NCBI GenBank assembly: GCA_048213135.1
Contig: PS015010.1
Coordinates: 1,922,001-1,986,000 of the forward strand
DNA from: Reclinomonas americana ATCC 50394
Taxonomy: Eukaryota
Reading direction: 5' to 3'
DNA length: 64,000 nt
Part shown: positions 23,121-51,127 of the stretch, one piece after another
Numbering within the stretch: the stretch's first letter is position 1
Layout of the letters: each line of letters begins with the position of its first letter
Position numbers and translations under genes: made by a program
Notes under the pieces: model-generated
What the model was told of the DNA's origin: nothing
The model's database searches: none
Seen by the model: the letters and a program-made list of their open reading frames with translations, nothing else

Positions 23121-24563
23121 TTAACCCAGGAAAGGCTTACCTTCTTTACTCAGTTCCCGCTTGATTCCCTGGAGTACATCGTACAGGTAGATCACCAGGC
23201 CATCGTCTTCTTCCGCAACAAGTATTTCCTTTGTACCGTTACTACCGGCGTGGCCGTTGCTGCTCATGGTTACCGGGTGCTGTTTTGTTCTGCGTCCCAC
23301 AGCTTTCAAACAGGCATAGTGCACCGCATTAATAATATTGCCGCCGGCCAGTTCATATCCTTTTACCAGGTCAGGAATATCGGCATATTCCCGTTCGGGT
23401 ATTTTGTTGTGATCACGGGGAGGCAGGTTCTTTTCCCATACAGCTTTTTGCGGGAATGAACTTTTCCAGATCATTGCTCTTTCGGCGGCGTCGGGGAACG
23501 GGAATTTGAGGATGGCATTGAACCGTCGCATGAAAGCATCATCAATATTGTTCTTCATATTCGTGGCCAGGATGATAAGGCCATTATAATTTTCGATACG
23601 CTGCAACAGGTACGACACTTCCTGGTTAGCATACTTATCATGCGCATCCCTTACATTGGTCCGTTTACCAAACAGCGCATCCGCCTCATCGAAAAACAAT
23701 ATCCATCCTTTATCTTCCGCTCTTGCAAAAAGCAATTCCAGGTTTTTCTCCGTTTCACCGATGTATTTCGATACGATCATCGACAAGTCGACTTTGTATA
23801 CATCCCTGCCGATTTCATTGCCCAGTAACCCGGCAGTGAGGGTTTTACCCGTACCCGGTGGACCATGAAACAGCGCCCGGAAGCCTTTTTTCAGCCTGTC
23901 CTGCATTCCCCATTTACTCATTAACTCCTCATTGTAATGCAGCCAGCTGGCGATCTCTCCTATCTGTTTCTGTAACTCGTCATTGATCACCAATGCATCC
24001 CATCCTCTTTTTTCCACGATATGCTGTGCAGGAAAATTGATACTGAAATGCGGAGGCGTTGGTTTTCCCAGCGTGAACGTATCTATATAATCCTGTGACA
24101 GAATAACACGTCCGCTCATGGCAGGTTCTCCTGCCGGTAATTCTTCCAGCCACGCGATCTTTTTCTGAGCAAACAAATGACGGGAACCAAACAGCTGCTG
24201 TATATCCATCCGCGATTCCAGTGTATTGCCGGAAAGCAGGAACAGTATGGTTTCACCCGTAGGCAGGAAGGTCCGGGAATTTTTCCCCCGCATGCCTCCC
24301 AGTTTGGGAAAATTGCCCGATTCCGGCAGGCGGAATTCAACTACCCTGTCAAACAGGTCGGGTTGCAAGTGCGGCACCAGGGCCACCAGCAGCAAAATGG
24401 CTTCATCTTTACTCAGTTGATGCTTAACGACAAAGTTTTTCAGTGGCAACGTCCACTCCTCCAGTTGCGGGATAACCGGCTCCGGCACCTGTTCTTCAGT
24501 AGGAAAATAATGCGACAGTTTATAGATGATCAATTCTTCGAGGTATTTGAATTCCCGGATCAT
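23121..24563 (-). CDS. eCIS AAA+ ATPase (Afp15/Pvc15-like)
   Basis: GPPGTGKT, VDLSMIVSKYIGETEKNL, LFFDEADALFGKR, DKYANQEVSYLLQR, DDAFMRRF; N-domain with LLVALVPH and PTGET. Confidence 0.93.
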   Translation of the reverse strand: MIREFKYLEELIIYKLSHYFPTEEQVPEPVIPQLEEWTLPLKNFVVKHQLSKDEAILLLVALVPHLQPDLFDRVVEFRLPESGNFPKLGGMRGKNSRTFLPTGETILFLLSGNTLESRMDIQQLFGSRHLFAQKKIAWLEELPAGEPAMSGRVILSQDYIDTFTLGKPTPPHFSINFPAQHIVEKRGWDALVINDELQKQIGEIASWLHYNEELMSKWGMQDRLKKGFRALFHGPPGTGKTLTAGLLGNEIGRDVYKVDLSMIVSKYIGETEKNLELLFARAEDKGWILFFDEADALFGKRTNVRDAHDKYANQEVSYLLQRIENYNGLIILATNMKNNIDDAFMRRFNAILKFPFPDAAERAMIWKSSFPQKAVWEKNLPPRDHNKIPEREYADIPDLVKGYELAGGNIINAVHYACLKAVGRRTKQHPVTMSSNGHAGSNGTKEILVAEEDDGLVIYLYDVLQGIKRELSKEGKPFLG

Positions 24564-24601: not shown

Positions 24602-25291
24602 TTACTTATCATCGTTCTTCTTTTTCCCGGCGTGCCCCTGCTGCACCACATGTGTCAATTCATGCGCCAGCAGGTGTTTGCCCTCGCTGCTGCCGGGGTC
24701 ATATTTATGTTCATTGAAATACACATCACTGCCATGAGTAAATGCCTGTGCCGACAGTTCCTTGTTCATACTTACCGATTCCGCGTCGGTATGCACTTTC
24801 ACCTGGCTGAAGTCGGCATGAAAAGAATTCCCCATTTCGGCAAGTGTTGAAGAAGACAGCGATTCTCCTTTTCCCGAACTGTTCTGTATCCGGCTGCCCA
24901 GGGCCGGGGATGCCGTTTGACCACCACTGTCATTTTTCCGCTGCACTTCCGGCTTCTCCTGTATTTCCTTGTCGCGAAGCATACGGGCATCGTTGGTTCC
25001 CGCTTTTTCATCCTCTTTATCTGTAGCCAGCCTTTGAATACTGTTGTCTTCTTCTTTTTGCTGTATACCTGCAACACCCGACGCCTGGCTCACTACCTTA
25101 TCCGCCATCTGGTCGGCTTCTTTTTCATACGCGTCACCGGGCTGACCAATCTCCAGCTTGGTTTGGAAGAAGGCACCGTTCTCTTTCCTTGTTTCCTTAC
25201 TGAAAAAAGGCGAGCCCTGTTCTTCCTGCTCTTCCCGGTCGCTGTGCGCTTTACCCGGGTTCTGCGATTCGTAACTGCTGCTTCTCATCAT
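24602..25291 (-). CDS. Minimal DUF4157 (eCIS core, HExxH) protein without payload
   Basis: QTKLEIGQPGDAYEKEAD, DFSQVKVHTD, AQAFTHGSDVYF, LLAHELTHVVQQ; ends 10 aa after QQ. Confidence 0.88.
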   Translation of the reverse strand: MMRSSSYESQNPGKAHSDREEQEEQGSPFFSKETRKENGAFFQTKLEIGQPGDAYEKEADQMADKVVSQASGVAGIQQKEEDNSIQRLATDKEDEKAGTNDARMLRDKEIQEKPEVQRKNDSGGQTASPALGSRIQNSSGKGESLSSSTLAEMGNSFHADFSQVKVHTDAESVSMNKELSAQAFTHGSDVYFNEHKYDPGSSEGKHLLAHELTHVVQQGHAGKKKNDDK

Positions 25292-27785: not shown

Positions 27786-29705
27786 ATAGAATATAATGGA
27801 GATGGAATGATAGCCATTTCCGAGCGAGAACAGGAAAGGATGAACGCCGTCCTCTTCTTTCTGCACAATGGCGTTCATTTCTCCGGCAATGGATGAACCC
27901 AGGGTAAGGTCGGAGTTGTTTTCTGGAATACTCATTTCTTTGGGGTAGGTCGCCGCGATCTGCCCGGTCACATTGATGAATTTCTTTTTCTTCATTTCAT
28001 CGATGGTACCGAAAGCCGTATCCTTCATATCGGAGGTATCGATGGTATTGATGCCATATAAGTTCTGCACACCCCTGTTGAAAGTACCGATGCAGGCGCC
28101 GGCACACGAAGAGGCAAACATATTATGACCCTGCAGTTTGGAAAATGAGTCCGGGTGTTTCACACGGTATTCCGCGATCAGCGCTTTCAGTTCCGCCAGT
28201 TTGGGATCCGATTTTTTAGTCATGGTCGTTTCACTGCCTTCCGGGAATATTGCGTTGAACTTGGTGAGTACCCAGGGTTCTGTGAAACTTGTGGCGGAAA
28301 CACTGATCTCGTACACATTCGTTTTCTTTTTATCGATGATCTTATCGACAGGAGCTCCTGTCGTGCCGAGGATATCGATCCTCGCCAGGTCTTGTATCAT
28401 CGTGTTCTGGTTCACTTCACCCCTTACATTGATCACCCTGCCTTTACCGGTTTTTACGGGGCTGTCGATGAGTTCCTGCGACATGGCTTTCTCTGCCGGC
28501 GCTGGTGTTGAACAGCCCGAACACCGTTGCAGCCTGAGTTTTGATTTCATGGCCGGCCGGCTCTCTTTCGTCATTTCACCCGTATTCATTCCGTGCATGC
28601 GGGCGACAGCATCAACAGCAGAATTATCCGCATCCTCTTCCAGCACATTCGTTTGGCTTTGATCGGCAGTTTTGGTTTGCTCCTGCGTAGCGCCACCCTG
28701 CTGCTGCAAAGTATGTGCAAGTTCATGGGCCATTAAAGCATCCCCTACAGGGTCACCGGGCTTGTATTCGCCACTGGCAAACGCAACATGGTTACCTACG
28801 GTAAAGGCGCGGGCATTCATGCCGGCGGATAACTGAGCGGCATTACTGTCCGTATGTATCTCAACTCCTGTAAAACCCGTTCCGAATGCATCTTCCATCT
28901 TCGACCTTGTTCCTGCTTCGAGCGGGCTTCCTTTTCCGAGACTTTGCATTACCGCCTGGGGTGATTGGGCCTGGGCGGTTGCACCCGGTTCGGATTTAAA
29001 GAACATATTGCCAATGCCGGACGCCACATCACTGATCATAGAACCGATACCTGCCGCAGCGCCGGTGAACAGGCTTGAGACTGATGACATGTCGCCACCG
29101 TTCTGCACCCATTGAAGCGCTGCCGTGTATACGCGTACCTTCATGGCCTGGATGAGTCCTTCTGCATTTGTCGCCAGGGCCGCTCCTGGCGCATACCGAA
29201 TGACGAGCGCCTGTATCTGTGCTGCACTGCTGTTCTGGTGTTTTTCAAAAGAAGCACGTATATACGGACAACTGTCTGCTGAAAAAGGTGTGCCCGACAA
29301 AGCCTGGTTTACGGTGGTGCAAACTTCTTCTTTCAGCCGGTTCAGGAATTCCGTTTTGCGCATCTGTCCTTTTTCCGGCGTTTCGGTATCTTCAACAATA
29401 CAGTGCGCTCCTGCAGGTGCAGCCGCAACTGGTCCCGGGGTATCCTGTGCAGCGGGTGGAGTTGGTACATCAGCCGTTCCTTCTTCTGCTCTTTGAATAC
29501 CCGGGGCATCCTTTTTTTGTACCTCTTCGTCTTCCTTCTCACACTGATCGCATTTCCTCTGAACCGTCACCGGTTTGTTTACCGTTCCGGAATTTTTCCC
29601 TCCGCCATTACCGGTAAAAAAAGAATGTTGCCCTCCCTGTTTATTAAAGAAGGGAACATGATCCTGCGCATCCTCGGTTAGTATGTTATTTTTCCTGGCT
29701 TTCAT
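27723..29705 (-). CDS. DUF4157 effector with putative papain-like C-terminal payload (apparently frameshifted)
   Basis: VQRKCDQC; helical domain shared with the 32914 gene; ALMAHELAHTLQQ; LEEDAD; LRLQRC; payload with ACIGTFN and GYHS. Confidence 0.8.
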   Translation of the reverse strand: MKARKNNILTEDAQDHVPFFNKQGGQHSFFTGNGGGKNSGTVNKPVTVQRKCDQCEKEDEEVQKKDAPGIQRAEEGTADVPTPPAAQDTPGPVAAAPAGAHCIVEDTETPEKGQMRKTEFLNRLKEEVCTTVNQALSGTPFSADSCPYIRASFEKHQNSSAAQIQALVIRYAPGAALATNAEGLIQAMKVRVYTAALQWVQNGGDMSSVSSLFTGAAAGIGSMISDVASGIGNMFFKSEPGATAQAQSPQAVMQSLGKGSPLEAGTRSKMEDAFGTGFTGVEIHTDSNAAQLSAGMNARAFTVGNHVAFASGEYKPGDPVGDALMAHELAHTLQQQGGATQEQTKTADQSQTNVLEEDADNSAVDAVARMHGMNTGEMTKESRPAMKSKLRLQRCSGCSTPAPAEKAMSQELIDSPVKTGKGRVINVRGEVNQNTMIQDLARIDILGTTGAPVDKIIDKKKTNVYEISVSATSFTEPWVLTKFNAIFPEGSETTMTKKSDPKLAELKALIAEYRVKHPDSFSKLQGHNMFASSCAGACIGTFNRGVQNLYGINTIDTSDMKDTAFGTIDEMKKKKFINVTGQIAATYPKEMSIPENNSDLTLGSSIAGEMNAIVQKEEDGVHPFLFSLGNGYHSISIIFYKKWRKNGNTLERPALGRSNG

Positions 29706-30841
29706 AACATGGGCTGATCATTTCTTTTACTGAAAAGAATATGAAAGACGCCGTTGTGTTTTTCAACAAGCTCGTATTGATCTCCATGGCTTTTAAGCAG
29801 GCCGATCACACCAGCCATTTTTTCCGCCAGCGGCCGGTCCATAATGTTCTTTTTCCTGGATGAAATGGTATAGAATATTTGCTCCGTTTCTCCATGTTGC
29901 TGTCCGCATGAAACAGAAAAACCTTTCTTCGTCGTGTACACATTTACATTCTTATCATCGTTGGCAGTTTTACCGGCTGTTTCCAGCAACTCTAATCCTT
30001 CTGCCAACTGACGTATATGTAATGGGAGCAACAATTCTTTTTGCCCATTTTTCCTGAACCGGTAAATACTCACGGCCGCAGCAAGCAGCATTACCACCAG
30101 GATGACCGAGTGCCAGCCATATGCAGGCAGCCAGCCCATCCTGCTCATGGCGAGTGTAACAGCGGTGAGCAGGATGGTTGTCCATTGTGCTTCCGATAAC
30201 CCGTTCCACAACGGCCGTTCGGGATCGCCGCGAAAGTATTCGAGTACAAAACGCATTAACCCGTAAATAACCGTATATATGATGAGCACCGTACCGGGCT
30301 GCACCTGCATGAAGAGCAAAGCAACCCCGGTAAAAACAGTGACGAACACATAGGCCGATTCAATAAGCTGCACCGGTAAAAGCGGAATATTTTTATAGAA
30401 CCAGGTAAACCCGGCATCAACATGCTGCTGCCCGTATACCACCCCATGCCGGTGAGGGCGGCCATGGCAGCAACCCACCGAATAACAACCGATACGGCCG
30501 AACGCCAGGAAGACGCCGATACCCAGCAAAGTAATATCCAGGTAAGGTAAAACAGGTTGTCCCATAGCATACAGTACCAGTGCGCAACTGAGCATGATAC
30601 CGATCTCGTGGTGATAATAAACGATGGTTTCTTCGCCTGTGATCCACCTGGCGGCGAAAGCGAGGATAAAGAAAACAGCGGCGGCGGTGCCCGCCATGGC
30701 CAGGATGACCAAAGGATTAAGTTGTAATTGTGTACACAGGAATACACCCAACCCCAGGCCGAGGATATAGCCCAGCACGCCGAAGAAATGGAAGGAATGT
30801 ACCCGGGCATTCAAAATACGGATATACAAACGAGGTTTCAT
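29702..30841 (-). CDS. Prolipoprotein diacylglyceryl transferase (Lgt)-like membrane protein with C-terminal soluble extension
   Basis: Multiple TM helices; FGRIGCYSVGCCHG, LPVQLIES and YGLMRFVLEYFRGD match Lgt-family motifs. Stop overlaps the next start codon. Confidence 0.8.
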   Translation of the reverse strand: MKPRLYIRILNARVHSFHFFGVLGYILGLGLGVFLCTQLQLNPLVILAMAGTAAAVFFILAFAARWITGEETIVYYHHEIGIMLSCALVLYAMGQPVLPYLDITLLGIGVFLAFGRIGCYSVGCCHGRPHRHGVVYGQQHVDAGFTWFYKNIPLLPVQLIESAYVFVTVFTGVALLFMQVQPGTVLIIYTVIYGLMRFVLEYFRGDPERPLWNGLSEAQWTTILLTAVTLAMSRMGWLPAYGWHSVILVVMLLAAAVSIYRFRKNGQKELLLPLHIRQLAEGLELLETAGKTANDDKNVNVYTTKKGFSVSCGQQHGETEQIFYTISSRKKNIMDRPLAEKMAGVIGLLKSHGDQYELVEKHNGVFHILFSKRNDQPML

Positions 30842-30855
30842 AGTTACGTTTTCGT

Positions 30856-31341
30856 TTACACTATATCGTTAGTTTTCAGCAGGTCGCTGATTATACCCAG
30901 TAACCATTGATACAGGTCATTGGGGTCAGCTTCCATCGCTTTTTCAAGTTCTGCTCTTAATTCCAGGAGGGCGGCATTTGCTTTACCGTTCTCCCCTGTT
31001 TTATAGTAGTACCTCGACAACACGATCAGTACATTGGCTTTTCTTTCAACAGCAGCAAAGCCCTCCTCTGTTAATTTTGCCAGCAAGGATTCGCAGCGTT
31101 CAACAGGCTCATCCCTTTCTATTGCAGAATAGAATGCCAGTTCCAGCGCCCGTCTTCTTGTTTCCTGCTGCAGCTGCGGTTTACCGGGTGTAAGAGCGAT
31201 GTACTTATCCTGTATCGCTTTATACTCGTGCTGCAGTTTTTCCATACTCCAATAAGGTGTTTGGGCATATACTTTTTCCAGTTCCCTGGCCAGGGCCCTT
31301 GATATTTCCTTTTCGTCTGCCGAAAGATTCTCAAAATCCAT
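30856..31341 (-). CDS. Helical hypothetical protein, candidate immunity protein
   Basis: 161 aa, predicted all-alpha, no signal peptide, 22 bp downstream of a DUF4157 toxin gene. Confidence 0.6.
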   Translation of the reverse strand: MDFENLSADEKEISRALARELEKVYAQTPYWSMEKLQHEYKAIQDKYIALTPGKPQLQQETRRRALELAFYSAIERDEPVERCESLLAKLTEEGFAAVERKANVLIVLSRYYYKTGENGKANAALLELRAELEKAMEADPNDLYQWLLGIISDLLKTNDIV

Positions 31342-31363
31342 ATGTATTCAATTGTCTTTTTAA

Positions 31364-32914
31364 TTACCTGTGATTCCAGTAGGCGCAATCCATAAAGCCC
31401 CGGGTTTTGGGTATGCGGCTGGGCCATTGTCCGCCATTTGCCCTGCAGGCAGCGGCACAGCTTACACAACGGCCTTCACCCCAGACAGATCCATCTTCAT
31501 CGGCCAGAGAAGTAAGCATACAGGCCAGCATTTCTTCATGGCAGGGGTCCGGCCGTCTCGGACTGTCACTTTCGAGCAGTACACTGCTGCCGATCACCAG
31601 CGTACCCACACCAAGGGTACTCCATATTCCAGCTCCCGCGCCCGTCCCAACAGCTGCGCCCGTTCCTACCGCGGCTCCTGTACCCAGTACGGCGCCGCCT
31701 TCGAGCGCCACTGCAGCGGCAGGCGCTGCCACACAACGCTGCAATCTTAATCCCGATTTAAGTCCTTTCATTTTTGCTTTATCCTTCAAGCCTTTTTTCC
31801 CCTGCATCGACAGCACCGCATTCACGGCTGCGGAGTCGGCATCCTCTTCCAGTTGTCCATAGCCTGCATTGCCCGCAGACTTTTCATCGATCCCTCCTTC
31901 CTGTTGCTGTGTATGCGCCAGTTCATGCGCAATGAGCGCATCACCCACCACATTACCCGGCTGGTATTCCCCTTCCGCAAACGCGATATGATTACCAACT
32001 GTAAAAGCTCTTGCATTCATGCCGGATGACAACTGTGCCGCTTTTGCATCGTTATGTATCTCTACGCCTGCGAAACTTGTCCCGAAAGCCGTTTCCATTT
32101 TTGAACGGGTACCACCTTCCATCGGTGTGCCTTTGCCCAGGCTGCTCATCACTGACTGAGGCGATTGCGACACTGCTGGACTACCGGTATCAGATTTAAA
32201 AAACATGCCGCTTAATCCCGACCATATACTTCCGCCTCCGCCGGTATTGTTACCTGCACCGCCTGCGCCTGCTCCTCCTCCTCCCATACCTATCATCGAC
32301 GCCAGTTTGTTCATGATCCATTGCCGGGCGGCTATAAATACCCTTCCTTTTACCATTTGAATCACGGCTTCCGCTGTCGTTGCACCGGCTGTTCCGGGAG
32401 CATACCTCCTGATGAGGGATTCAATATCTGCAGCACTGCTGCCTTCGTACCTGGCAAAAGCGCTTTGCAGGTAAGGACAATTGTCTGCAGTAAAAGGGGT
32501 GGCTCTCAAAGCCAGGTTCACACTGTCCCTCACTTCCATTTTCAGTCTTGCCATGAACTGGCTTTTACGCATCTGACCGGCTTCGGGCGCTGCTGTATCC
32601 TCAACAATAAAATGCCTTGCCGCCTGGCCCGCTTGTTGTTGCTGCTGTTGTGCTGGCGGGTTTGCAGGAGGAGCAGTTGTTTTGGCTTGTTGCTGCGATG
32701 GCGCCGCTTCTTTTTTTTGCACTTTATCTTCCTGCTCGCATTCCTTACATTTTTTTTGGATCACCGGTTTTGCCCCGCTTTTTTTACTTCCACTTTCCGT
32801 CTTATTGAAAAAAGTATCCCCGCCACCGAAAAAATGCTGGTCACTCTCCTTAGAAGGGAGACTGGTAGTAACCGGTGGCACTTTTTTTTCTTTATCGAGG
32901 GGTTGTTTTTTCAT
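31364..32914 (-). CDS. DUF4157 effector with Gly-zipper and Cys-rich C-terminal payload
   Basis: IQKKCKEC; ALIAHELAHTQQQ; LEEDAD; LRLQRC; GTGAAV-type repeats; C-terminal C..C..CVSCAAAC..GQWP..C. Confidence 0.85.
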   Translation of the reverse strand: MKKQPLDKEKKVPPVTTSLPSKESDQHFFGGGDTFFNKTESGSKKSGAKPVIQKKCKECEQEDKVQKKEAAPSQQQAKTTAPPANPPAQQQQQQAGQAARHFIVEDTAAPEAGQMRKSQFMARLKMEVRDSVNLALRATPFTADNCPYLQSAFARYEGSSAADIESLIRRYAPGTAGATTAEAVIQMVKGRVFIAARQWIMNKLASMIGMGGGGAGAGGAGNNTGGGGSIWSGLSGMFFKSDTGSPAVSQSPQSVMSSLGKGTPMEGGTRSKMETAFGTSFAGVEIHNDAKAAQLSSGMNARAFTVGNHIAFAEGEYQPGNVVGDALIAHELAHTQQQEGGIDEKSAGNAGYGQLEEDADSAAVNAVLSMQGKKGLKDKAKMKGLKSGLRLQRCVAAPAAAVALEGGAVLGTGAAVGTGAAVGTGAGAGIWSTLGVGTLVIGSSVLLESDSPRRPDPCHEEMLACMLTSLADEDGSVWGEGRCVSCAAACRANGGQWPSRIPKTRGFMDCAYWNHR

Positions 32915-34300: not shown

Positions 34301-37300
34301 TTACCAGTTAGGGGTTGCATATTCAATTACAAATGCAGGCTCGCCCCCGGCCACCCAATAATCGTTCAGTTCTTCAATGGTGGTTATTTTAACCTGGTCA
34401 ATGGTTCCGCCTGCTGTAAAAGCCGTATTGGGCGGTGGCCAGAAACTGTATATCTCCGTTCTTCCCACTCCATCCAGGGTGCCTTTTGCCAGTGCTATGT
34501 GACCTGCCCCGTCAAAGAAAACGATGTCACCTGCCACAGGTCTTGAAGCCGGGCTTGCCGGGTTGTACGGTATACGGTTGTTGAAACTCAGTTCGTTCAC
34601 CAGGAAAGCAAACCAGTCCGGCGCGCCTGATGTGTATATCGCATGTATCCTGGACCAGCTTAAAGCCCCGCTGCGGAATGCAGCAAGCATCACCATTTCC
34701 CAGCAGTTGATCACAGTTAATGCGCTCAGCGTAGGCGTGGGTCCCTGTGCCGGCGCACTCGCCCATACCTGGAATGTGGTGCCGGAACCGCGTCCGGATG
34801 GCCGCCATCTTGCGGTATCTCCTACCATTGACCCCATCTCATTGGCCACTCCCAGTTGTGTATGTGCTCGGGTGATCCAGGCAGGGGGCCTGTGGTCAGC
34901 GGAAGTATCGAATGTACCATCGCGTATATCCCTTTCCATAATGGCACAGGCGATAACATCTTCTCCGGCGGGGAAAGCATTCGATGCTTTAAAGAGGTTA
35001 CAAAGCCAGGCATAGTCCACATTGGATACCGATGCCTCTTCCAGCACCCATTGTATGGCAGTGAGCATATCGAAATGCAGGTCGTCCAATGCGGTTTTTA
35101 TGGTCGTGTTATCACAAACGCCGACAAAGAAATCACGCCAACCAACTGTTTTCAGTTTATCGCGGTTGGTCTGATCAGCAGCAGTAATCAGACTCTGGAT
35201 ATCACTGTATGCCAGTGAACTCGGCGACGCCTCTTCTTCTATCCATTCCATTTGTGTGATCAGATCAAAACCCAAATCCTTCACTGCCGTGATGATGGTG
35301 CTGTTGGTACAAACACCGACAAAGAAATCACGCCAGTCATTTGTTTTCAATTTATCCCGGTTGGGCTGGTCAGCAGACGTGATTAATGCCTGGATATCGC
35401 TGTACGCCAGCGAACTTGCCGCCGCTTCTTCTTTTACCCAATTCATTTGTGTTTCCAGATCAAAATGAAGATCCGTTACGGCTGTGATGATGGTGCTGTT
35501 CGTACAAACGCCGACAAAGAAATCACGCCAGTCATTTGTTTTTAACTTATCGCGGTTGGGCTGATCGGCTGCTGTGATCAAAGGCTGGATATCACTGTAA
35601 TCCAGCGAACTTGCCGATGCCTCTTCGTTTATCCACTCCAACTGTGTAACCAAATCAAAATGAAGGTCGGTTACAGCTGTTATGATGGTACTGTTGTCGC
35701 AGACGCTGGTAAAGAAACTCTTTCCGACTTCCGCACTTACCTTCAGCGCATCCCTCTCGGTTTGCGGGGTATTGGTATCAGTTATCATAGCACTGATATC
35801 GGAGTAACTGATGCTACTGTCACTATAGGCGGCGGCTTTAACCCATTTCAATTTCTCTTCGAGTGTTGGATGGAGTATGTTCACCGCCTGCACCATTTGT
35901 CCGACATCAAGAGCGCTGGCCATTCTTGTTCTGTAGGTAGGATCTGTAAGCACGGTTGTACGCTCTGTGTCCGTTAATAACCTCAGCTGGGCGATCACAT
36001 CCTCCTCGGGAACATCGAAACTGTCGAGCATTTCATTCAGGCTCGTTAAATGATCGGTGCCATCCTGTTTTTGTATATCCGGCGCATCTTTCTTCTGCAC
36101 CGACGAAGCCCCTTGTTGTATGGTATGCGTTAATTCGTGCGCCAGCAGGTGCTGACCGGTTTTGCTTTCGGGGTCATATTCACCGTTCCTGAAATAAATA
36201 TCATTGCCATGGGTAAACGCCAGCGCATGAATGTCCGAGCTCATTTGTGAAGCGTCGGAACCGGTATGTATTTTCACATCACTGAAGTCAGCACCCATGT
36301 GCTCTTCCATGTTTCCGCGAACATTATCCGGCAACTGGTCGCCGCTGCCTTTTGATGACTGGATACGGCTCTCCACCGATGCCGGTACTTCACTGCCGGT
36401 GTTTTCAGACTTCTCCTGTACTACGCCATCTTCAGCCTGTCTTTGTACCGACCCGCTTCCGCCACTGAAAGCCGTGAGGAACAGGTCATACTTAGCCATC
36501 GGGCGAACGTTTTCTATCACCTCACTGAATAGTCCGCTGTTGCCGTCAATGCTGTGTACATTGTCACCATCGATCTTTACAACAATGCAATGGTGCTGGT
36601 TAGGATCATGTATATACCCGATATCACCTGCCTGCGGCGAGGTGGTGGGTTTGAGTTTTCCAAAAGCCGACACACCTTTGCCCATTTGCCAGTTGCCTAT
36701 ATCCAGCCCAGCTTTTTTGTGTGCCCATACGGAAAAAATACCGCACCAGGATGGCATATCGGCTCCGGCGGTTTCAATGATACTGTCGTCCCATACACCG
36801 GGCGCCGCTTTATGAAAATATTCCAGCAGGTATTGCGCACCCACTCTTTTGCCGCTGCCATCCGCATGTTTGGCTTCTACTTTACCGATCTGTGATTTCG
36901 CGGCAGCTACCACCGCTTCCCTGGAACCATTGCCGGAACTGCCACCGGCTCGTTGTACTATCGCCGACAGTTTCGTAAACACCCGGTCGCCTTCTTCACA
37001 TTCGCGGCACCGTCTTTGCACAAGAACTTCTGTCGTACCTGATGTATTCGTTGCTGAATTATTATTATCCTGCCCGTTATCCCCCGCATCATCTGCAGGT
37101 GGTGATTCAGGAGGGATATCACCCGCTCCTGCACGCCTGATCTCCATTACAGGCTCGGATTGTTCGTCCTCTTCTTTTTGAATATCTTTTTCCGCTGTCT
37201 TTGGCTGGAAAGTATCACAGGTGTTGCACTGCTGCTGAACCGTTGTTGCAGCGTCTGTTGTTTTGGCTGCAGCTACAGGCTCCGCCAATTGCTGTACTAC

Positions 37301-37816
37301 TTTATCAGCCATGGCATCGGCTTCCTGCTCATACGGGTCGCCGGCTTCGCCAACGCTGAGTTTGGCCTGTATGGGAAGATGTTGCCCTTCTGTACCCGGC
37401 TCTTCTGATTTTTCCTGCACCAGTTTGTCTTCCTGCTGTTCTTCTTCTTTTTCGCAGTGATCGCATTTGGCCTGGATTAAGTCTGCACCGGGATCTGTAT
37501 TATTTTCTTCACTACCCTGTTCTGTGCATTCCTTTTGCTGTACCACATCCGTTTCTCCCTCGGAAATATCTTTTTTATCCGGCTGTTCTTCTTTTTCACA
37601 CGGGTCGCATTTGGCCTGGATTGTTGTTGGGGTGGTATGACTGAAGAAACCGGGTTCAGATTTAGCCTGTACCGGCGGCTCTCCCGATTTCATGAAGAAA
37701 GGTTGTTCCTGTTCTACGGTTGAAGACAAAGCGAGGCCTCCCTCCTTGCTAAAGAAAGACGCTTTGCTTTTCGCAACAGTCGTTGCGGCCGATTTTTGAT
37801 CTGTGGCTCTCATCAC
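34301..37816 (-). CDS. Large DUF4157 effector: Q[RK]/CxxC leader, CHAP-like amidase, DUF4157, 65-aa helical repeats, C-terminal NlpC/P60-like domain
   Basis: IQAKLSVG..DPYEQEAD; PSWCGIF..PQAGDI..HHCIV..IDGNS; LLAHELTHTIQQ; INCWEM..GDIVFF..GHIALA. Confidence 0.87.
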   Translation of the reverse strand: MMRATDQKSAATTVAKSKASFFSKEGGLALSSTVEQEQPFFMKSGEPPVQAKSEPGFFSHTTPTTIQAKCDPCEKEEQPDKKDISEGETDVVQQKECTEQGSEENNTDPGADLIQAKCDHCEKEEEQQEDKLVQEKSEEPGTEGQHLPIQAKLSVGEAGDPYEQEADAMADKVVQQLAEPVAAAKTTDAATTVQQQCNTCDTFQPKTAEKDIQKEEDEQSEPVMEIRRAGAGDIPPESPPADDAGDNGQDNNNSATNTSGTTEVLVQRRCRECEEGDRVFTKLSAIVQRAGGSSGNGSREAVVAAAKSQIGKVEAKHADGSGKRVGAQYLLEYFHKAAPGVWDDSIIETAGADMPSWCGIFSVWAHKKAGLDIGNWQMGKGVSAFGKLKPTTSPQAGDIGYIHDPNQHHCIVVKIDGDNVHSIDGNSGLFSEVIENVRPMAKYDLFLTAFSGGSGSVQRQAEDGVVQEKSENTGSEVPASVESRIQSSKGSGDQLPDNVRGNMEEHMGADFSDVKIHTGSDASQMSSDIHALAFTHGNDIYFRNGEYDPESKTGQHLLAHELTHTIQQGASSVQKKDAPDIQKQDGTDHLTSLNEMLDSFDVPEEDVIAQLRLLTDTERTTVLTDPTYRTRMASALDVGQMVQAVNILHPTLEEKLKWVKAAAYSDSSISYSDISAMITDTNTPQTERDALKVSAEVGKSFFTSVCDNSTIITAVTDLHFDLVTQLEWINEEASASSLDYSDIQPLITAADQPNRDKLKTNDWRDFFVGVCTNSTIITAVTDLHFDLETQMNWVKEEAAASSLAYSDIQALITSADQPNRDKLKTNDWRDFFVGVCTNSTIITAVKDLGFDLITQMEWIEEEASPSSLAYSDIQSLITAADQTNRDKLKTVGWRDFFVGVCDNTTIKTALDDLHFDMLTAIQWVLEEASVSNVDYAWLCNLFKASNAFPAGEDVIACAIMERDIRDGTFDTSADHRPPAWITRAHTQLGVANEMGSMVGDTARWRPSGRGSGTTFQVWASAPAQGPTPTLSALTVINCWEMVMLAAFRSGALSWSRIHAIYTSGAPDWFAFLVNELSFNNRIPYNPASPASRPVAGDIVFFDGAGHIALAKGTLDGVGRTEIYSFWPPPNTAFTAGGTIDQVKITTIEELNDYWVAGGEPAFVIEYATPNW
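35010..35920 (-). repeat. Intragenic 195-bp (65-aa) tandem repeats, about 3.5 conserved copies plus 1 degenerate
   Basis: AAAGAAA-anchored units at 35126, 35321, 35516 and 35711; unit FFVGVCTNSTIITAVTDLHFDL..W..EEA..SSL.YSDIQ.LIT.ADQ.NRDKLKT.DWRD. Confidence 0.92.
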
Positions 37817-37843: not shown

Positions 37844-39319
37844 TTATCGCCACTCCACCCTGATGAGTTCATTCAGCCAGGGCAGTTTGACGATGCTGAT
37901 ATTCCAGGGCAGGTGATCCAGCAGCATATCAATGGCGCTTTTTTCCACCTGGAAATAAATACCCCCGTTATGCAGGTAAGTCTTACCCCGCCGTTGCAGA
38001 AAGCCTTCCCGAAGGCCGCCGGGCGTTGTACTCTTAAGAATACTCCACTGGGCGATTGCCGCGTTCAGCATATCATTGGCTTCCGTCGTTTCACCTGCTT
38101 CCAGTAAAGTGTCCGTACTCAGTGGCTCTTCAATAGGCCAGGCACACAATATTTTGGGTACAGCGAGTAAGTGTTCTTCGTAGGTATCACTGCCCGTAAC
38201 CGCATAGTTCAGCAGCAATATTGCTTTCTCCTGCGCCAGCCTGTTCGTGAACCGGCCATCAGTAAGCAACCCCGAGTTCCTGAACAGGGACCGTAAAAAA
38301 GGATGCAACAACAGCAAGCCCGCATGCTCAACAAAAAGTCCTTCAGGAGGAAGATGAAAAACGGTTGGAGCAAAAGGTTCTGTGGTTGCTTCTGATCTAT
38401 CAGTAACTGTTTTTACCCGTTGCTGATCTTTTATCTTTTCGATATGCTTGTCACCGGGTTTGTATTCCGGGATAGTTTCAATTCTGATTGACATTTTACC
38501 CAACAGGGAAACCAGCAGCGGTGGATGTTGTTTTTTATCCTTTACCTGTTCCCTGTTGATATGACCATCACGGAGATCAGCTTCCAGCAGTTGCTGCACC
38601 AACAGGTCCGGACCCGGTTGATTCGTTGCGGCCGCTGCCTGTCTTACCAGTTTCAGCCACACAGCAGGAGCTGTCGTAACCGGGACAACAGTTTGCCGGT
38701 AAAAAGTCAAAAGCTGATCAATAATAGCGGGCAATTGCTTCTGGTCATGCGCAGTCAGTATTTCCACCAGTTTAACCAGGAAGGCGGCATCATGACTGAG
38801 TGCGATCCTGCGGGCAATGCTTTCCTTCCGGCCGACCAGCTGGCGTAATTGTCCGACCATTTTAAAATCCGTTGCCAGTATTTCCAATACCTGCATTTTC
38901 CAGTCCTCATCAATGGCTGTTATGTTCCAGGGCAATACACCGTGTTCCATATAATGCAGCCATTGTTCGCAGGCGTTATGGGCCAATGATGTTGTTTTAA
39001 TGCCGGGCAAGTGTTGCTTACCATTTATGGGAGGGGCTTTTACCGACAGTTGTTCTTTTATCTTTTCCCTTAACAATTGTTCGATGGCATCGCAACTCAT
39101 TTCACGTTTGCTTTTATCCCATTCCAGTAGCCCCAGGTCAATCTCCAGTTTGTCGAGTTGTAATACCTCTCCTTCAACAGACAACTCGTTAAAAATTTTC
39201 TCCAGCACAGGCAATACTTCCCTGTAATAATATTTACTTGCTTCATGTTGCAGGACGAACAGTTCATCACGGCTGGCGGATGATATCTCAAAAAGCTGTT
39301 TCCTGATCACATGCTGCAT
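37844..39319 (-). CDS. CIS tape-measure protein (Afp14-like)
   Basis: N-terminal HVIRK..LDKLEIDLG and YMEHGVLPW; C-terminal AGLLLLHPFL, LREGFLQRRG, DMLLDHLPW..KLPW..VEW. Confidence 0.85.
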   Translation of the reverse strand: MQHVIRKQLFEISSASRDELFVLQHEASKYYYREVLPVLEKIFNELSVEGEVLQLDKLEIDLGLLEWDKSKREMSCDAIEQLLREKIKEQLSVKAPPINGKQHLPGIKTTSLAHNACEQWLHYMEHGVLPWNITAIDEDWKMQVLEILATDFKMVGQLRQLVGRKESIARRIALSHDAAFLVKLVEILTAHDQKQLPAIIDQLLTFYRQTVVPVTTAPAVWLKLVRQAAAATNQPGPDLLVQQLLEADLRDGHINREQVKDKKQHPPLLVSLLGKMSIRIETIPEYKPGDKHIEKIKDQQRVKTVTDRSEATTEPFAPTVFHLPPEGLFVEHAGLLLLHPFLRSLFRNSGLLTDGRFTNRLAQEKAILLLNYAVTGSDTYEEHLLAVPKILCAWPIEEPLSTDTLLEAGETTEANDMLNAAIAQWSILKSTTPGGLREGFLQRRGKTYLHNGGIYFQVEKSAIDMLLDHLPWNISIVKLPWLNELIRVEWR

Positions 39320-39331
39320 CTTGTTATGGAA

Positions 39332-42300
39332 TTATTTTTTCTTTTTGTTCGCCGACAATAATTGTTTCACAGCTTCTGTATCCATCCCGGGTTCATACTT
39401 TTCTATTTCAGCGGCATCCCAGTAGTTGCTGATGTGCTGCACATCGATGCCCGCCTTTACAAGCCTGGTCACCGTTTTTTGTAACTGCGCCAGTTTTGTG
39501 GGGTCTTTACCGTTAAAACTGACTTTATCGAGGTAATAGCAGATCGCCGCCTGCAACAGGTCGAGCTGCTGATGACTGTTCAGTATTTTGGCACCTCTTA
39601 CCGCGGGTTTTTTATTCTGTATGATCTCCACCGCCAGTTTATCGATCGCGTCTGCCGAAGGCTCATTGCCAGACAGTAGCGCCTGCATCTTCGATGCTGA
39701 AGGATTGCCTTTAGAGTGTTCGAGCACCTGCGCCGCCAGCTTCTGGTAACGCTTCATCCGCGTGTTGATCACCTGTGCCCGCTGCCGCTGATCAGGCACT
39801 TTCGCTTCCGCGACAGGTGTCACTTTAACATCAACTGCTTTATCTTCTTTCTTTTCAACCGGCATTTTCTTAATCTCTGCTACTACCGGTTGCGCCGGGG
39901 GCAGTTGTACTTTTCTTTTTACCTGGGGCAATGTTGAACCCGGTGCCGGAAGTGGCACGGGTACAGTACCCCGGTCACAATAGCGGGGCAGGCAGTATAT
40001 ATCATGTACCTGGTTGACAAAACCGTTGGGGTTCTCTTTCAGCGATGGCCTTCCATTTTTAAAACAATCATTTACAGGTACCAGTGCAGGTTCCTTGCAA
40101 GGCTGGCAGTCGGTACATTCATCCAGGCAATCGTATGTCCTGTCGAAGAGCAGGTGCAGGAAATCACAGCGGTCAAATCTGTCGCCACAAGCTGTTGTAC
40201 CCGTAAGCCACTGGTTCCATTTTTTGAACATAAATTCAAACTCACAGAAATCCCTCGGTTTAAGCCAGAGGATGCGCAGGAGTACATGCGCAGGCGCTTC
40301 GCGGTAGAGGTAGTTCTCAATAACACTTCGGCTGCCTGCATCGCGAAAACGGGCACTCCAGGCGGGCAAGGCAATAGTAACGATGAAAGAATAAGGATCG
40401 GCGCCGGGTTCAAAGCAAACGCTTCCGGGCAACGAAGAGCAGGGATCATCGTCATCGATCTTATAGGGTGGAAAACTGCAACCTGCGGTACATAGCTTCG
40501 CATCTTTACGGCAATCACAATCTCTGTCACAATGCGGTCTCAATAATATATGCTCGGCCAGGTGCAAACCTTCACTGTTGACCAGTTGCCGGGCTGTATC
40601 CACGGCAATACACACTTCCTTTGTTGTATCATAACATTGCGGATTAACAGCAATGATATCACTTACCCACTGACCGGCCGTTGCCGTTGTACCCTGCTCT
40701 CCCCTTACGGTTACCAGCCTGGATTGCTGAATATGCAACGCGATACCGAAAGAATGACATTCGCAATCGAATACCGGGTGATAGAAACTTTTTTGCGCCA
40801 GTAATTGCAATGCTTTTTCGTATGCTTCCAGGGCCAGGCTGCAGGACGGATAACAACAGTTTCCTTTCCAGGCGATATGACAATAACCTTCTCCGGCTCC
40901 GGGTTTTTCATCGCAGCCACAGGGTTTATTCAGGCCCGCGTCTTCCATACAACTGTTGAAGCCGGGCAGCTTGATCTCGATACAATATTTATAAACCGGC
41001 TTTTCATTTTCACCGGCACCGGGATTCAGCTGTACCCTTACGATAGGATAATGACAGGCCCAGTTTTTTAAGATAAACAACCATTCTGTTTTCCATTTGG
41101 CGATCTCCTGATCATCTTTCAGGATCCGTTGCTCTACAGATGAAATGTGTATACCGTCTGTACCAGTACCTGCGGAAAGATGACCGTCTTTGGTATAATC
41201 AACCGTTGTATCGGTAGTCATGATCGTTTCGGCAAGACGTATATAGATGTCGCAGAAATCTCTTTCCGTAATCTTCCCGGGTTGCACATTGGCAAATGGT
41301 TTCCCGGAAAAATCATTCAGCACGATCACGTTGCCGGATGGCGAAACTGAGTAAGACTTGTTTTTGCTGTACACCTGCATATTATCGTACAGTAACTGTA
41401 TTGCTTCGTCCCGTTGTTTTTCAGTATCGTATTTGCAGGGATGATCCAGCAACCCGCTGCCACAGGTTACATAAAAAGAATAGCAGCAGTCTGTCCTGCG
41501 CAGGTAATTTCTGAAAGCATTGCCGGATTGCACGGCACAAATAAATTTCTCTATTCCTTCCTTACCCCATGCCTGTTCTTTGGTGGTAAACCAGTCAATA
41601 CTTTGCGCCAGCACTTCGCGGATGAATATGCGATATGCGTAAACGGACACACAATCGGCAGCGGACGCGTTCTCCTGTCCCGCACAGCCACAATCAACAT
41701 AGTAGTTACCGGTATATTTGAGGAGTCTTACGAAATAAAGGAAATCTTCCATAGCGGCGCCCGGGGTTTCGTGGTATCCCGTGCTTTGCCAGTGCCCCTG
41801 CACATTTTTGAGTTTGGGTGAATCGTTAACCGGCAGCGTAAAGTAATACACCCATTTACCTGGCTTTCCTTTGCAATCACCGACCTTAGGTTCATATGTT
41901 TTACAGAACAGGCAGGCAAATTTTTCAGAATCGCTGTCGATGACTTTTATAGGATAGGTCGCCAGGTAACCGGCAAGGTTTGTCATCCACGTTGCACCGA
42001 ATTTATCCAGCAGCCATTTCAAGGTTGCGGCAGGTACGTATACAACTGCATCACTGGCCATGCAATCTCCCGTTACGGGAACCTCAACAGGCACCAGGCT
42101 GATTTGTTTTCCGTAGGAAGATACTTCAGCAGCCATCGTAAGGATATGCAGGTAATGGTCCTGGAATGCTTTATATGCTTCCTCTTCCGAACCATATGCC
42201 TGCACACTCCCGAACAGCACCAGTTCTTTCCCGGCAGCATCATGCTGATTGTGCAGTTTTACCTGGTAACGGTAACGCAGGTTATTATCCCTGTCAATGA

Positions 42301-45300
42301 CCTCGCTGAAAATATCACCGCCAAGACATACCTGCGGTATTTTCCTGATCATATTTTTCGACAGGGAAGCAACAATCTTACGCTGGTCCCAGGCTGTATC
42401 TTCGGCGGCAAAAGGCTGTGTAAAAAAGGCCGGAACCCTGTTCTTGTTCACCAGTTTGTATACATAAGTGCCTTGCTGGTTCACACCATCTACAGCAACC
42501 CAGGTGGCCAGTTCACGGGGATCTTTCACTGCCGCCAGTTTAGCAATCTGCTGCTGTTGTTCCCATTCCGTACGTATGGCAGGCAGACGGGTATCTTTTT
42601 CCGCAATCTCCATAGCTACAGCAGGCAATTGTTTGTCTTTCAATGGAACGATCTGCAGTTGTTTGGCGTTCTCTTTAAGTCCGAGATTGAGTATGCCGCC
42701 ATGAAAAGCAGATGACGCCGCAGTGGCTTCATCGAAAGATTTATATTCGGGTACGCTGTAAAACTCAAATGCATGCGCTGCTTCATACCCCAGCCGGTAG
42801 CGGAATTTCCAGGAAGCGGGTGTTTTTACCAGGCCAAGTGTATACAGGTGCCGGGCAATGGTACCTGACATATGCGCAATGGCTTTTTCCGTTTCTTCCC
42901 TTGTTGTATAAAACGCTGCGGATGCAGCCACATCAACACCATCCTGCTGCAGTACTGCCTGGTAACGACGGTTTTCCTTATCGAGTTTGATAATAAAATT
43001 CGCCCGGTCTGCCGCCGCGGTCAGCACATCGGCACAATGTTCCCTGGCCTGTTCGCCGGTCTCAAAATCAACTGAAGGCGATATCTTAAAAGAGTTAGTG
43101 TCTTTGTCAAGTACATCATACGTGAACATCCCGGGTTTACCGATGATGGTATCGCTGATATCAATATTAAAACCGGCCAGGTCGATGAAACGATGAGTAT
43201 CGCTATTGCGTTTATCATGATGAAAAACAAGACCGCCATCCTTTTCAGCAGCCTGCCAGGCCTTGGGTATATTGATCTTGGGCAGCAATTTCTTTATGCC
43301 GTCCTGTGCCTGTTTTTCTGTATGCCATACATCAGCTGCCAAACGGATTATTTTACCGTCGCTGTTGCTGAGTTCTCCTTTCCAGTTCCAGGAATATTCC
43401 AGCACCGTATTGGCAGGCGCCTGCTGCGAGGTGCCCTGGCTCAGGTAAGCCACGAGTTCATCTGCGCTATTCGAATTGGAAAAGGTGACAGCATGTACAG
43501 CCGGTTGCGTTGCGCCGTAATGCAATTGCAACTGGTATTGTTTTTTATCGGGCTGATAAACAACTTTATAATTACCAGCATCCTTCATGGCGCTGACCAT
43601 GTCTGCGGCGGCTTGTAACGCGTCTGCCTGCAGGTCATACTTTTCATAAATACAGAAGGCCGCGATTCCCGCTTTGCTGAGATCCAGTATAAACTGTTCG
43701 TCGTACAGGTCAACGGTAAAGTGGCAGAGATAATCTTTTTTGAGAGACGACATTCCCGCCAGTGCTTTGATCTTTTTTTCAAAGCCCGATATATTGTCAT
43801 TATTCCAGCCACCTTCGAGATAATCATACCCCCTTCCCCGGTTGCGGCTGATGTCATCGTATTGGGTAAGGAAGCGCTCCATATTCCCGACGGCTGTTCT
43901 TTCCGAACCGCTTTTCCAGTTGAGCAGGGCAAAGTCGGTGAATTTTTCCGCGAAACGGGATAAAAGATGCGACAGGAATTTTTTCCGCCTGCTGATATAC
44001 AGTTCATCGCTCTCTACCAGCATGCCCAGGTAATCGGTGTAGGAAGCGATGTTAAGTTCGATATTAAAAGAATAGCCGCTGCCATTCATAAGGAAAGAGC
44101 GGTAGTTGCCGTCAAACAAGCCTGTATACTGAACGGAAGCGGCCTGCTGCAGGGCTTCTGTTTCTGTAGCACACATTTTTGCGCCCAGCAGGACATAACC
44201 GGCTTCTGCGGGAGATAACGTAAAGAGCCAGCAATCATCGAATGTGCGCCATGCTTTCGTGGTGATCTCCTTTTCATCTTCCAGTCCGTCCCGTAACAGG
44301 GCTGTTGCTTCTTCCAGTGATGTTAGTGAATTGAATTGATAAGGCGTGAAGGAACGCAGCAGTTCTTCTCCCATTCTTAACGTGGTATTGACCAGTTCCC
44401 AATCCTCGCGGGATACGGGAAAGACCAGTACGGTACCATTTACGCCCAGTGCGGTATCGCTTCCCGCAGATCCGAAACGCAGGAGCTTCTCCATCTCCGG
44501 TACTGTTTTCAGCGTATTGAGGAAATAGGTATGCTGATCTTTAATACCGGCAGGGCTTTTAAGGGCGAACAATTGCCTTATATGTTTCAACTGGGAAAGA
44601 TAGTTAGCCAGCATCTGGTCGAAGAACAACAGGTATCCTTTCAATTGCAGGGCCTGCGCTTTACGTTCATCAGAAGCATCGTCGGGCAGTTCTCCTTCGC
44701 CTATTCCATACACCCTCGGAAAATCGTGCTGTATTGAGTAGTAATCTTCCAGGTCGGAGTGATAGATACCGTTGGGTATGGGATTATCGAGATAAGGCGA
44801 AGGCAGCGCATATTTTACTTTACCGTTGTGCGAAAAATTAAGTGCCAGCAGCGTTTCGAATTTTTGCGTATCCACATTTACCGGCAGCCCATTCCGGGTA
44901 AACTCTATACCTGAGCAGGCAATGGAAAAAGAAGGAATATGATTTTTGGGCAGATTAAATTTCCAGTGTGATCTTTTTGTCTTGTCATCACCCGGGCAAT
45001 CTTTACCACAACTTTTCAGTTCAAGACGACTGATCTTTTTCACACCTTCCACGTCAAATATGACATTGTATACGTCTGAAGTATGTATCTCTTTTTTCAG
45101 TTGCAGGTTCTCCAGTTCATCGGTATCAACAAAACCGTGGCTTTCCGGGCTGTAAGGCCGCCCGGCAAAAATATCTTCGATGGCCTTGCCCTTATCCAGC
45201 AATTGCGGAAGTGTATAGAATTTAGGTGCCGGCGACAGGAACTCCCGCAGGTGTGTGGCAATGTCGAGATAAACATTTTCCGCATCGGCTGTGTCTTCCA

Positions 45301-46012: not shown

Positions 46013-46021
46013 AATTCATCT

Positions 46022-50671: not shown

Positions 50672-50688
50672 AAATTATTATCCCTGTT

Positions 50689-51111: not shown

Positions 51112-51127
51112 AATCAACCTGTTTATT

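Follow-up and report, generated by a model that had tools for sequence, protein, structure and literature searches.

In a 64,000-nucleotide stretch of the Reclinomonas americana ATCC 50394 assembly (GCA_048213135.1, contig PS015010.1, positions 1,922,001 to 1,986,000; hereafter the window), we found a locus for an extracellular contractile injection system (eCIS), encoded on the minus strand, in which a gene related to the prolipoprotein diacylglyceryl transferase Lgt lies between two cargo genes of the DUF4157 family. The cargo proteins carry a conserved cysteine motif at the junction between their DUF4157 module and their payload. The Lgt-like gene and this motif occurred together when the search was started from either side, and a functional coupling of the two is very probable. 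Our proposal, held tentatively and at a little less than an even chance, is that the gene encodes a dedicated eCIS-associated paralog of Lgt that lipidates the junction cysteine of this cargo subclass.

The cargo genes and the Lgt-like gene

The features that carry this finding are the following.

31364..32914, minus strand: DUF4157 cargo A, 516 aa (PF13699, 97.9 bits; alignment to cargo B)
31733..31750, minus strand: LRLQRC of cargo A, a lipobox-like junction motif, Cys codon 31733-31735 (translation)
29702..30841, minus strand: Lgt-like membrane protein, 379 aa, with eight predicted transmembrane (TM) helices and a C-terminal soluble domain
30461..30499, minus strand: variant signature motif GRIGCYSVGCCHG of the Lgt-like protein, residues 115-127, aligned to canonical GRxGNFxNxExxG
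29705..30049, minus strand: C-terminal soluble alpha/beta domain of the Lgt-like protein, residues ~265-379, after an extra eighth TM helix
27723..29705, minus strand: DUF4157 cargo B, 660 aa (PF13699, 98.5 bits), its start overlapping the Lgt-like stop
28521..28538, minus strand: LRLQRC of cargo B, then SGC, Cys codon 28521-28523 (28509-28538 read LRLQRCSGCS)
34301..37816, minus strand: DUF4157 protein of 1171 aa without the Cys motif, an internal contrast (Pfam, alignment)
24602..25291, minus strand: short DUF4157 protein of 229 aa without the Cys motif, a second internal contrast, ending 16 aa past HExxH

All four DUF4157 proteins of the window contain the eCIS_core/DUF4157 domain (PF13699), and in both proteins flanking the Lgt-like gene the domain includes HExxH. 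A first-pass annotation, made from the sequence alone, had reported that these two paralogs diverge immediately after an identical LRLQRC. Translation and alignment confirmed this: the proteins share 47% identity, can be aligned from the N-terminus to the Cys (junctions ..LKSGLRLQRC in cargo A and ..MKSKLRLQRC in cargo B) and are unalignable beyond it. Cargo A is composed of an N-terminal region, the DUF4157 domain, a linker ending in the Cys motif (Cys at residue 394) and a payload of 122 aa; cargo B has the same module and then a different payload of 265 aa. Both N-termini, as read from the sequence, are hydrophilic and without signal peptide. The identity of LRLQRC inside the window follows from the paralogy of the two proteins, and what goes beyond chance is the conservation of the Cys throughout the family. 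The gene order was also as annotated, the TGA stop of the Lgt-like gene overlapping the ATG of cargo B in ATGA at 29702-29705, and the two DUF4157 proteins further away (24602-25291 and 34301-37816) indeed do not contain the motif.

Co-occurrence of the Lgt-like gene and the Cys motif

The annotation had suggested that this Lgt clade should co-occur with DUF4157 genes of the Cys-motif type, and the searches bore this out from both directions. Through scanning an alignment of the Lgt-like protein against species-representative genomes, we obtained 42 loci, and the Lgt-like gene was present in 41 of them. The record titles name Bacteroidota, Acidobacteriota, Planctomycetota, Cyanobacteria, Desulfobacterota, Gemmatimonadota, Chloroflexota and others, at least eight phyla, with lineages such as Bacteroidota families, Solibacteraceae, Thermoanaerobaculia, Isosphaeraceae, a cyanobacterium, Desulfobacteraceae, Gemmatimonadaceae and Anaerolineae. 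A DUF4157 gene with the Cys motif lies on the same strand in 31 of the 41 loci, its Cys codon 359-5331 bp from the enzyme gene. Where any DUF4157 ORF was found (33 loci), the nearest one was of the Cys type in 26, and the Cys type makes up 39 of the 74 DUF4157 ORFs across the enzyme-seeded loci.

In the reverse direction, an alignment of 27 linkers (HExxH to Cys+4), built after six false matches had been removed by eye, was searched on its own against metagenome contigs. The Lgt-like gene stood on the same contig in 22 of the 33 linker-seeded loci. Of the remaining 11 loci, two do not contain the motif, and most others either lie on contigs of 2-8 kb or have the cargo gene touching a contig end; L083 (13.6 kb) and L109 (11 kb) contain 9 kb downstream without an enzyme gene. 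Several of the counted loci are near-duplicates (L080/L081/L088 and L086/L087), and therefore the independent cases are fewer than counted.

A random sample of 401 genomes of the phylum held the Lgt-like clade in the seed genome alone, which is too sparse for a two-by-two statistic. Nine other sampled genomes of that phylum had DUF4157 matches, none of them with the terminal Cys motif. The 256-bit match G309 was rejected as a member of another Lgt subfamily, with no Cys cluster and in a non-eCIS context.

At three of the enzyme-seeded loci without a motif gene nearby (L013, L016 and L021, ~6400-13500), the neighbours of the Lgt-like gene are glycosyltransferase-2/methyltransferase fusion genes instead of cargo genes, and the Cys-motif cargo genes of these genomes are located elsewhere. 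The neighbours at L013 also include a DUF6519 protein, the one large ORF scanned among those of the three loci.

The Cys motif of the linker

Conservation of the Cys, on which the annotated idea depends, was found across the family: all 27 aligned type-1 linkers share it, as do 77 of the 79 unique full-length linker domains identified by profile in all the collected sequence. The two Cys-less linkers read ..LPVQRK.. and ..LPIQRK.., and both come from sampled genomes without the enzyme. The motif, with the consensus [ST]-G-L-x-[LI]-[QS]-[RS]-C, closes the linker downstream of HExxH, the Cys being located 57-88 residues past it. The composition in the 77 Cys linkers is as follows.

Position -7: S/T/G
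Position -6: G (74)
Position -5: L (73)
Position -3: L65, I9, V2, F1
Position -2: Q56, S12, R4, H3
Position -1: R65, S11, G1
Position +1: mainly G/S/A

Leu/Ile at -3 and Cys at 0 are features of a lipobox. As a lipobox substrate ([LVI][ASTVI][GAS]C after a Sec/Tat signal peptide), the motif does not qualify, with no signal peptide ahead of it and with the residues given above at -1, where PMC12462473, in its treatment of the canonical lipobox, gives G/A/S.

The same Cys-motif ending also occurs 86-88 residues past HExxH in linkers of a second type (..LSRKEMAQLE..KGVDKVQKKDSGLSLRRC), whose sequence is unrelated to the first; it has the form ..(S/G)-L-S-L-R-R-C (GLSLRRC) there, and this linker type was found in loci L014, L018, L019, L020, L025, L026 and L039. 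The C-terminal domain of the Lgt-like protein has 143-153 aa in the five loci of this type with a complete enzyme, compared with 109-138 aa in the other 18, which hints at linker and enzyme C-terminal domain varying together.

Several other features of the cargo were observed. Payload A (31364-31732, minus strand) is Gly/Ala-rich and hydrophobic directly past the Cys, with repeated GTGAAV units and then a Cys-rich tail, and a payload after LQRC in L015 (~8900-9499) starts similarly (LQRCVAAAAAPEVALLIGG...). Payload A looks like a membrane-inserting peptide, which would fit membrane-directed payloads. A comparison of cargo A with PDB sequences gave nothing meaningful. Near the N-terminus of the three large DUF4157 proteins we also found one or more copies of a Q-[KRA]-[KR]-C-x-x-C-E-x-E motif, for example IQKKCKECEQED, VQRKCDQCEKED and IQAKCDPCEKEE in 31364-32914, 27723-29705 and 34301-37816 (minus strand), which forms a second conserved Cys feature. 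In L082, the DUF4157 protein beside the Lgt-like gene (1-1212, plus strand) reads ..VRMQRL.. at the motif site, with Leu for Cys; a regular GLRLQRC is encoded by the gene that borders the enzyme on its opposite side.

Family and motifs of the Lgt-like protein

The Lgt-like protein matched PF01790 (LGT) with 67.9 bits against a cut-off of 24.9, residues 8-232 covering profile positions 5-237 of 240. It fell below the cut-offs of the NCBIfam equivalogs, with 46.3 against 118.9 bits for TIGR00544 and 73.3 against 334 bits for NF000778. All motifs that the annotation had pointed out are present, namely GRIGCYSVGCCHG, RFVLEYFRGDPERP, LPVQL (in LPVQLIES) in place of HPxQL and a soluble tail of ~115 aa. 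A protein search gave 787 matches with E<=0.001 among 8000 candidates scored, and the best 120 were mostly full-length proteins of ~350-420 aa. In 24 of 24 family members G115, R116, G118, C119, G123, C124, C125 and G127 are invariant, and so are P156-x-Q-L-x-E-S, R197, E201, R204, G205, D206, R209, P210 and a C-terminal block.

The signature of E. coli Lgt is given as G142-R-L-G-N146-F-I-N-G-E151-L-W-G154, and mutants of R143, E151 and H103 are described as inactive, in the part of PMC4728403 on these residues. Through hhalign profile-profile alignment to the canonical Lgt of the same genomes (probability 87.9%), we found that the equivalents of H103, G142, R143, G145, R239 and E243 are retained: H78 corresponds to the His of HGGL (H103), R116 to R143, G127 to G154, and R197/E201 to R239/E243. 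H78, R197 and E201 are invariant, the first in a motif that reads HHEI rather than HGGL.

The annotation had itself allowed that the gene might simply be the housekeeping lgt. In five of five genomes a canonical lgt (125-219 bits to PF01790) exists alongside the Lgt-like gene (69-79 bits), and the Lgt-like gene is distinct from housekeeping lgt.

Cys at the N146 position was also observed in other Lgt proteins. The best-scoring Lgt of two Chitinophagaceae genomes (G003 and G005, loci L046 and L047; ~390-430 aa) has GRIGCQVSGDGDWG, and a 257-aa Lgt paralog with GRLGCFLAG in G004 (L050) adjoins an ORF taken by eye for a radical-SAM protein. Therefore, the change from Asn to Cys is not unique to the eCIS clade.

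Structure and membrane topology

The AF2 model of the 379-aa protein (pLDDT 86) contains eight long helices and a C-terminal alpha/beta domain. E. coli Lgt (5azb) was the sole Foldseek match in PDB with E<=0.001 (E 1.6e-4, probability 1.00, TM 0.55 on target, 14% identity); only this fold search found Lgt, and phmmer against PDB sequences found none. The C-terminal domain is conserved across the family and was also modelled when folded alone (AF2 pLDDT 88). A search for its structural relatives gave none that were convincing, the best being 2qzi (function unknown; Z 6.4, rmsd 4.3 A, 93 residues), and the type III secretion chaperones ExsC and InvB and phage neck/terminator proteins appeared at noise level only. 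A complex prediction of enzyme and linker, made without alignments and with a poorly folded partner, scored 0.00, which counts neither for nor against an interaction.

In E. coli Lgt, as described in PMC4728403, the periplasmic half contains both the signature motif and the catalytic cavity, and the cytoplasmic side carries positive charge. The canonical topology, with seven TM helices, periplasmic N-terminus and catalytic half and a positive cytoplasmic side, does not describe the Lgt-like protein, which has eight predicted helices and apparently reversed charges. Over 24 sequences, with helices taken from the model, the mean number of K+R per protein was 15.9 on the side of the catalytic loops and both termini and 1.6 on the opposite side (N-terminus 3.8, catalytic loops 4.4 and 3.3, past helix 8, 3.0; short loops 1-2, 3-4, 5-6 and 7-8 with 0.2, 0.6, 0.3 and 0.5). 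In canonical Lgt of the same genomes (n=5), the homologous short loops had 4.0, 2.8 and 3.0, the C-terminus 3.8 and the N-terminus 0.6, a charge pattern that fits the known orientation. Considering the positive-inside rule, the reversed charges would therefore place the catalytic face of the Lgt-like protein in the cytoplasm.

In the AF2 model the eighth helix (residues 242-264) returns the C-terminal domain to the side of the catalytic loops. Three longer homologs (P0121, P0122 and P0123; 678-693 aa) contain ~300 soluble residues before helix 1 and no signal peptide, and this N-terminal fusion includes a CxxCxxCC metal-binding domain (PF03692), which should remain cytoplasmic. Loop charges, eighth helix and fusions together suggest a paralog inverted in the membrane, with its catalytic face predicted to be cytoplasmic. 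The passages on loading in a preprint (10.64898/2026.05.27.728243) and in PMC11297309 place the loading of eCIS cargo in the cytoplasm, and an inverted topology would thus answer how a normally periplasm-facing enzyme could reach it.

Proposed function

In the lipoprotein pathway three steps are carried out by Lgt, signal peptidase II and an N-acyltransferase, and canonical Lgt modifies an internal Cys ahead of cleavage. To our knowledge, bacterial Lgt has been found to lipidate exported proteins only, at the outer face of the cytoplasmic membrane. We propose that the Lgt-like enzyme would reside in the inner membrane in the opposite orientation to housekeeping Lgt, exposing its catalytic cavity and added C-terminal domain to the cytoplasm. 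Cargo without signal peptide would be recruited to it, perhaps via the C-terminal domain, and a lipid, most simply diacylglyceryl from phospholipid as in Lgt, would be transferred to the Cys thiol. The adjacent DUF4157 domain, which resembles a metallopeptidase, might subsequently cleave the cargo ahead of the Cys, as signal peptidase II does with ordinary lipoproteins, and such cleavage would leave a payload with a lipidated N-terminal Cys. The lipid tag may thus be added to toxins inside the producing cell, before injection. The complete scheme, in which a flipped Lgt paralog lipidates toxins in the cytoplasm, the DUF4157 domain of the cargo is a built-in counterpart of signal peptidase II and the diacylglyceryl-cysteine payloads insert themselves, is rather unlikely to hold in all its parts.

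The annotated idea of a dedicated lipidation of injected toxins is supported in part, by the co-occurrence, the conservation of the Cys and the non-housekeeping status of the gene; the order of events it proposed is not. It had placed cleavage at QR first and lipidation of the exposed Cys second, for which we found no support, and lipidation first is more likely because canonical Lgt acts on an internal Cys before cleavage.

We favour a dedicated transferase because this covers the pairing, the invariant Cys with Leu at -3 and the retained Arg/Glu/His set for binding of the lipid donor, and also the cytoplasmic orientation, the extra domain on the catalytic side and an enzyme conserved while payloads vary.

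Several points weigh against it. The signature motif deviates, C119 standing on N146 and C124 on E151 in the hhalign alignment, with both Cys invariant in 24 of 24 members, and L154 replaces the His of HPxQL. In E. coli, E151 binds phosphatidylglycerol and E151A/Q are inactive, as PMC4728403 states. With Cys at both the N146 and E151 equivalents, the donor lipid or the chemistry may therefore differ from E. coli Lgt. On the cargo side, -1 is Arg in 65 of 77 motifs, unlike the G/A/S of the canonical lipobox, and no membrane-embedded hydrophobic segment precedes the motif, so that its presentation to the lateral cleft would have to differ. Within the flank examined, 10 of the 41 enzyme-seeded loci contained no motif gene. 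Five of these are on short or cut contigs (L007, L024, L029, L031 and L040), and the other five genomes were searched as a whole: four hold 3, 3, 3 and 2 full-length Cys-motif linkers elsewhere, in one genome on the same contig at a distance of 18-22 kb, and the L030 genome holds no Cys-motif linker. The topology is predicted to be inverted from charge statistics and three fusion proteins, lipid transfer is inferred, and the proposal assumes that a diacylglyceryl-bearing protein can be loaded into the eCIS tube.

Alternative explanations

The Lgt-like protein might be a catalytically diverged membrane dock which binds the Cys-motif linker and transfers no lipid, for instance by a metal site common to both or by a disulfide that joins the cargo Cys to its C-x4-CCH cluster (Cys3-His), and so keeps cargo at the inner membrane for loading or self-protection. 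We consider this unlikely. It would account equally well for the tight pairing, two residues of the signature are replaced by invariant Cys beside a nearly invariant His, the added C-terminal domain resembles a binding module, and substitutions of E151 inactivate E. coli Lgt, according to PMC4728403. A dock hardly explains why the equivalents of R143, R239, E243, H103, G142 and G145, which serve binding or activation of the lipid donor, are invariant or nearly so. The cargo motif also resembles a lipobox, with Leu at -3 and Cys at 0.

Distinctly unlikely, in our judgement, is that the Cys motif serves the DUF4157 protease, as a self-cleavage site or as the zinc ligand of a cysteine switch, while the enzyme acts elsewhere, on another eCIS component or on membrane lipids for particle release. 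Matrix metalloproteases are kept latent by such a switch, through a Cys in the N-terminal prodomain and without a lipid transferase; the likeness to our cargo is a conserved Cys near an HExxH domain, and it is a lead for this explanation only. The motif lies ~57-88 residues past HExxH and just after an LExDAD element, a potential third zinc ligand, a related LExEAD element also occurs in DUF4157 proteins without Cys, and conserved junction motifs are common in polymorphic toxins. The explanation leaves unaccounted the two-way co-occurrence of Cys form and enzyme, and also the origin of both Cys-less linkers from enzyme-less genomes. No other conserved partner of the Cys motif was found, the remaining multi-locus genes of the window being the ATPase, a ParA-like and a VCPO-like gene.

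As a membrane protein whose gene lies between toxin genes, the Lgt-like protein could also confer immunity to a payload directed at lipids or membranes. Genes for immunity usually change together with the payload; here a conserved enzyme goes with differing payloads downstream of the Cys, and payload A, payload B and the 161-aa ORF beside the enzyme gene have no homologs in the other loci, which makes this very unlikely. That the gene is housekeeping lgt, or serves the 447-aa lipoprotein at 32954-34297, could be read from the Pfam LGT match and from the lipoprotein-like signal peptide ending in SHSC, and it is extremely unlikely given the equivalog scores far under the cut-offs, a canonical lgt in all five genomes, the clade in one of 401 sampled genomes and a single weak homolog of the 447-aa protein among the fetched loci.

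Neighbouring and accessory genes

The window contains an eCIS locus with Pfam matches between 23121 and 60605, and the genes for sheath, tube, spike, tape measure, Pvc16-like protein, AAA ATPase and DUF4157 proteins lie in one cluster. Its other features are the following.

37844..60605, minus strand: eCIS structural genes, comprising tape measure, baseplate-size ORFs, VgrG-like spike, tube, sheath and Pvc16_N
30856..31341, minus strand: 161-aa ORF, a variable accessory gene between cargo A and the Lgt-like gene
23121..24563, minus strand: eCIS AAA ATPase (PF00004), with homologs in 26 fetched loci

The Pfam families of the structural region were CIS_TMP, Phage_base_V/GPD, CIS_tube, Phage_T4_gp19 (two genes), Phage_sheath_1C and Pvc16_N. 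The 161-aa ORF has no Pfam, NCBIfam or PHROG family and possibly encodes immunity to payload A. PHROGs likewise gave no match for the enzyme, payload A or payload B. The 447-aa ORF (32954-34297, minus strand) begins with a signal peptide of the lipoprotein type (..LFSTSHSC) and matched no Pfam family. The annotation had named it as a possible client of the Lgt-like gene; since it has a weak homolog in only one other locus, it is not the conserved partner of the enzyme.

Downstream of cargo B lie a VCPO/PAP2-like protein (26104-27498, minus strand; DUF6851, VCPO_2nd and VCPO_N), with homologs in 9 loci, and a ParA-like ATPase (25321-26094, minus strand), with homologs in 15 fetched loci. In the other loci, homologs of both are usually found directly past the Lgt-like gene. 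The phosphatase-like VCPO/PAP2 enzyme, standing beside a transferase that putatively uses phospholipid, may belong to the same module.

Comparison with known systems

The protein shares Pfam family and fold with E. coli Lgt (5azb), and its partner motif has Leu at -3 and Cys. It differs from E. coli Lgt by eight TM helices instead of seven, the ~115-aa C-terminal domain, a shortened head region, Cys at the N146/E151 equivalents, Leu for the His of HPxQL and reversed loop charges. Its partner differs from E. coli Lgt substrates in having no signal peptide, a Cys hundreds of residues into the protein and mostly Arg at -1, and the gene coexists with a canonical lgt. With the canonical lipoprotein pathway the proposed logic is shared, that is, lipidation of the thiol at a lipobox-type Cys and then cleavage just before it; here these steps would take place on the cytoplasmic face, on a Sec-independent protein, and the substrate would bring its own protease, the DUF4157 domain.

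AlgoCIS Cgo1/Cgo2 and other DUF4157 cargo, for which the sections on cargo in 10.64898/2026.05.27.728243 and PMC11297309 give DUF4157 no settled function, are described there with a disordered N-terminal loading region, DUF4157 and a variable C-terminal effector, in an eCIS locus with AAA ATPase. The subclass described here adds to this a conserved linker with Cys motif and a partner enzyme. For Skillet-1 lipocone proteins, lipidation of a lipobox-like Gly-Ser motif is predicted in the part of PMC12419801 that treats them. In both cases a dedicated lipid-handling membrane enzyme and a non-canonical lipobox-like motif are paired by neighbourhood, and in both the modification is a prediction; as presented there, Skillet-1 differs by an unrelated enzyme superfamily, Ser instead of Cys, exported substrates and no injection system.

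A full-text literature search found no publication on this pairing of enzyme and cargo, none joining DUF4157 with diacylglyceryl and none joining 'extracellular contractile injection' with lipobox; one general review contains both 'contractile injection' and 'diacylglyceryl transferase'. 'Lgt' is absent from the main texts of PMC8213781, PMC11297309 and the AlgoCIS preprint (10.64898/2026.05.27.728243), and 'lipoprotein' from those of PMC8213781 and PMC11297309. The main text of PMC8213781 also contains no LGT/PF01790, and its supplementary tables might list PF01790 among eCIS-enriched domains. Where the text of the AlgoCIS preprint mentions 'lipid' and 'cysteine', once each, the words are not tied to cargo modification.

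Implications

Aquimarina mytili, Mariniflexile fucanivorans and Deminuibacter soli are carriers in culture among the records, and therefore the idea is directly testable. If it is true, lipoproteins would also be made by a pathway that faces the cytoplasm and does not depend on Sec, and lipoprotein biogenesis would have a new branch in the form of a flipped Lgt dedicated to one kind of substrate. DUF4157, the commonest marker of eCIS cargo, would gain a function, with a concrete role for its Cys-motif subclass, and it would be explained how some injected payloads get to target membranes. Linker and enzyme together would then provide a portable tag for engineering eCIS protein-delivery particles.

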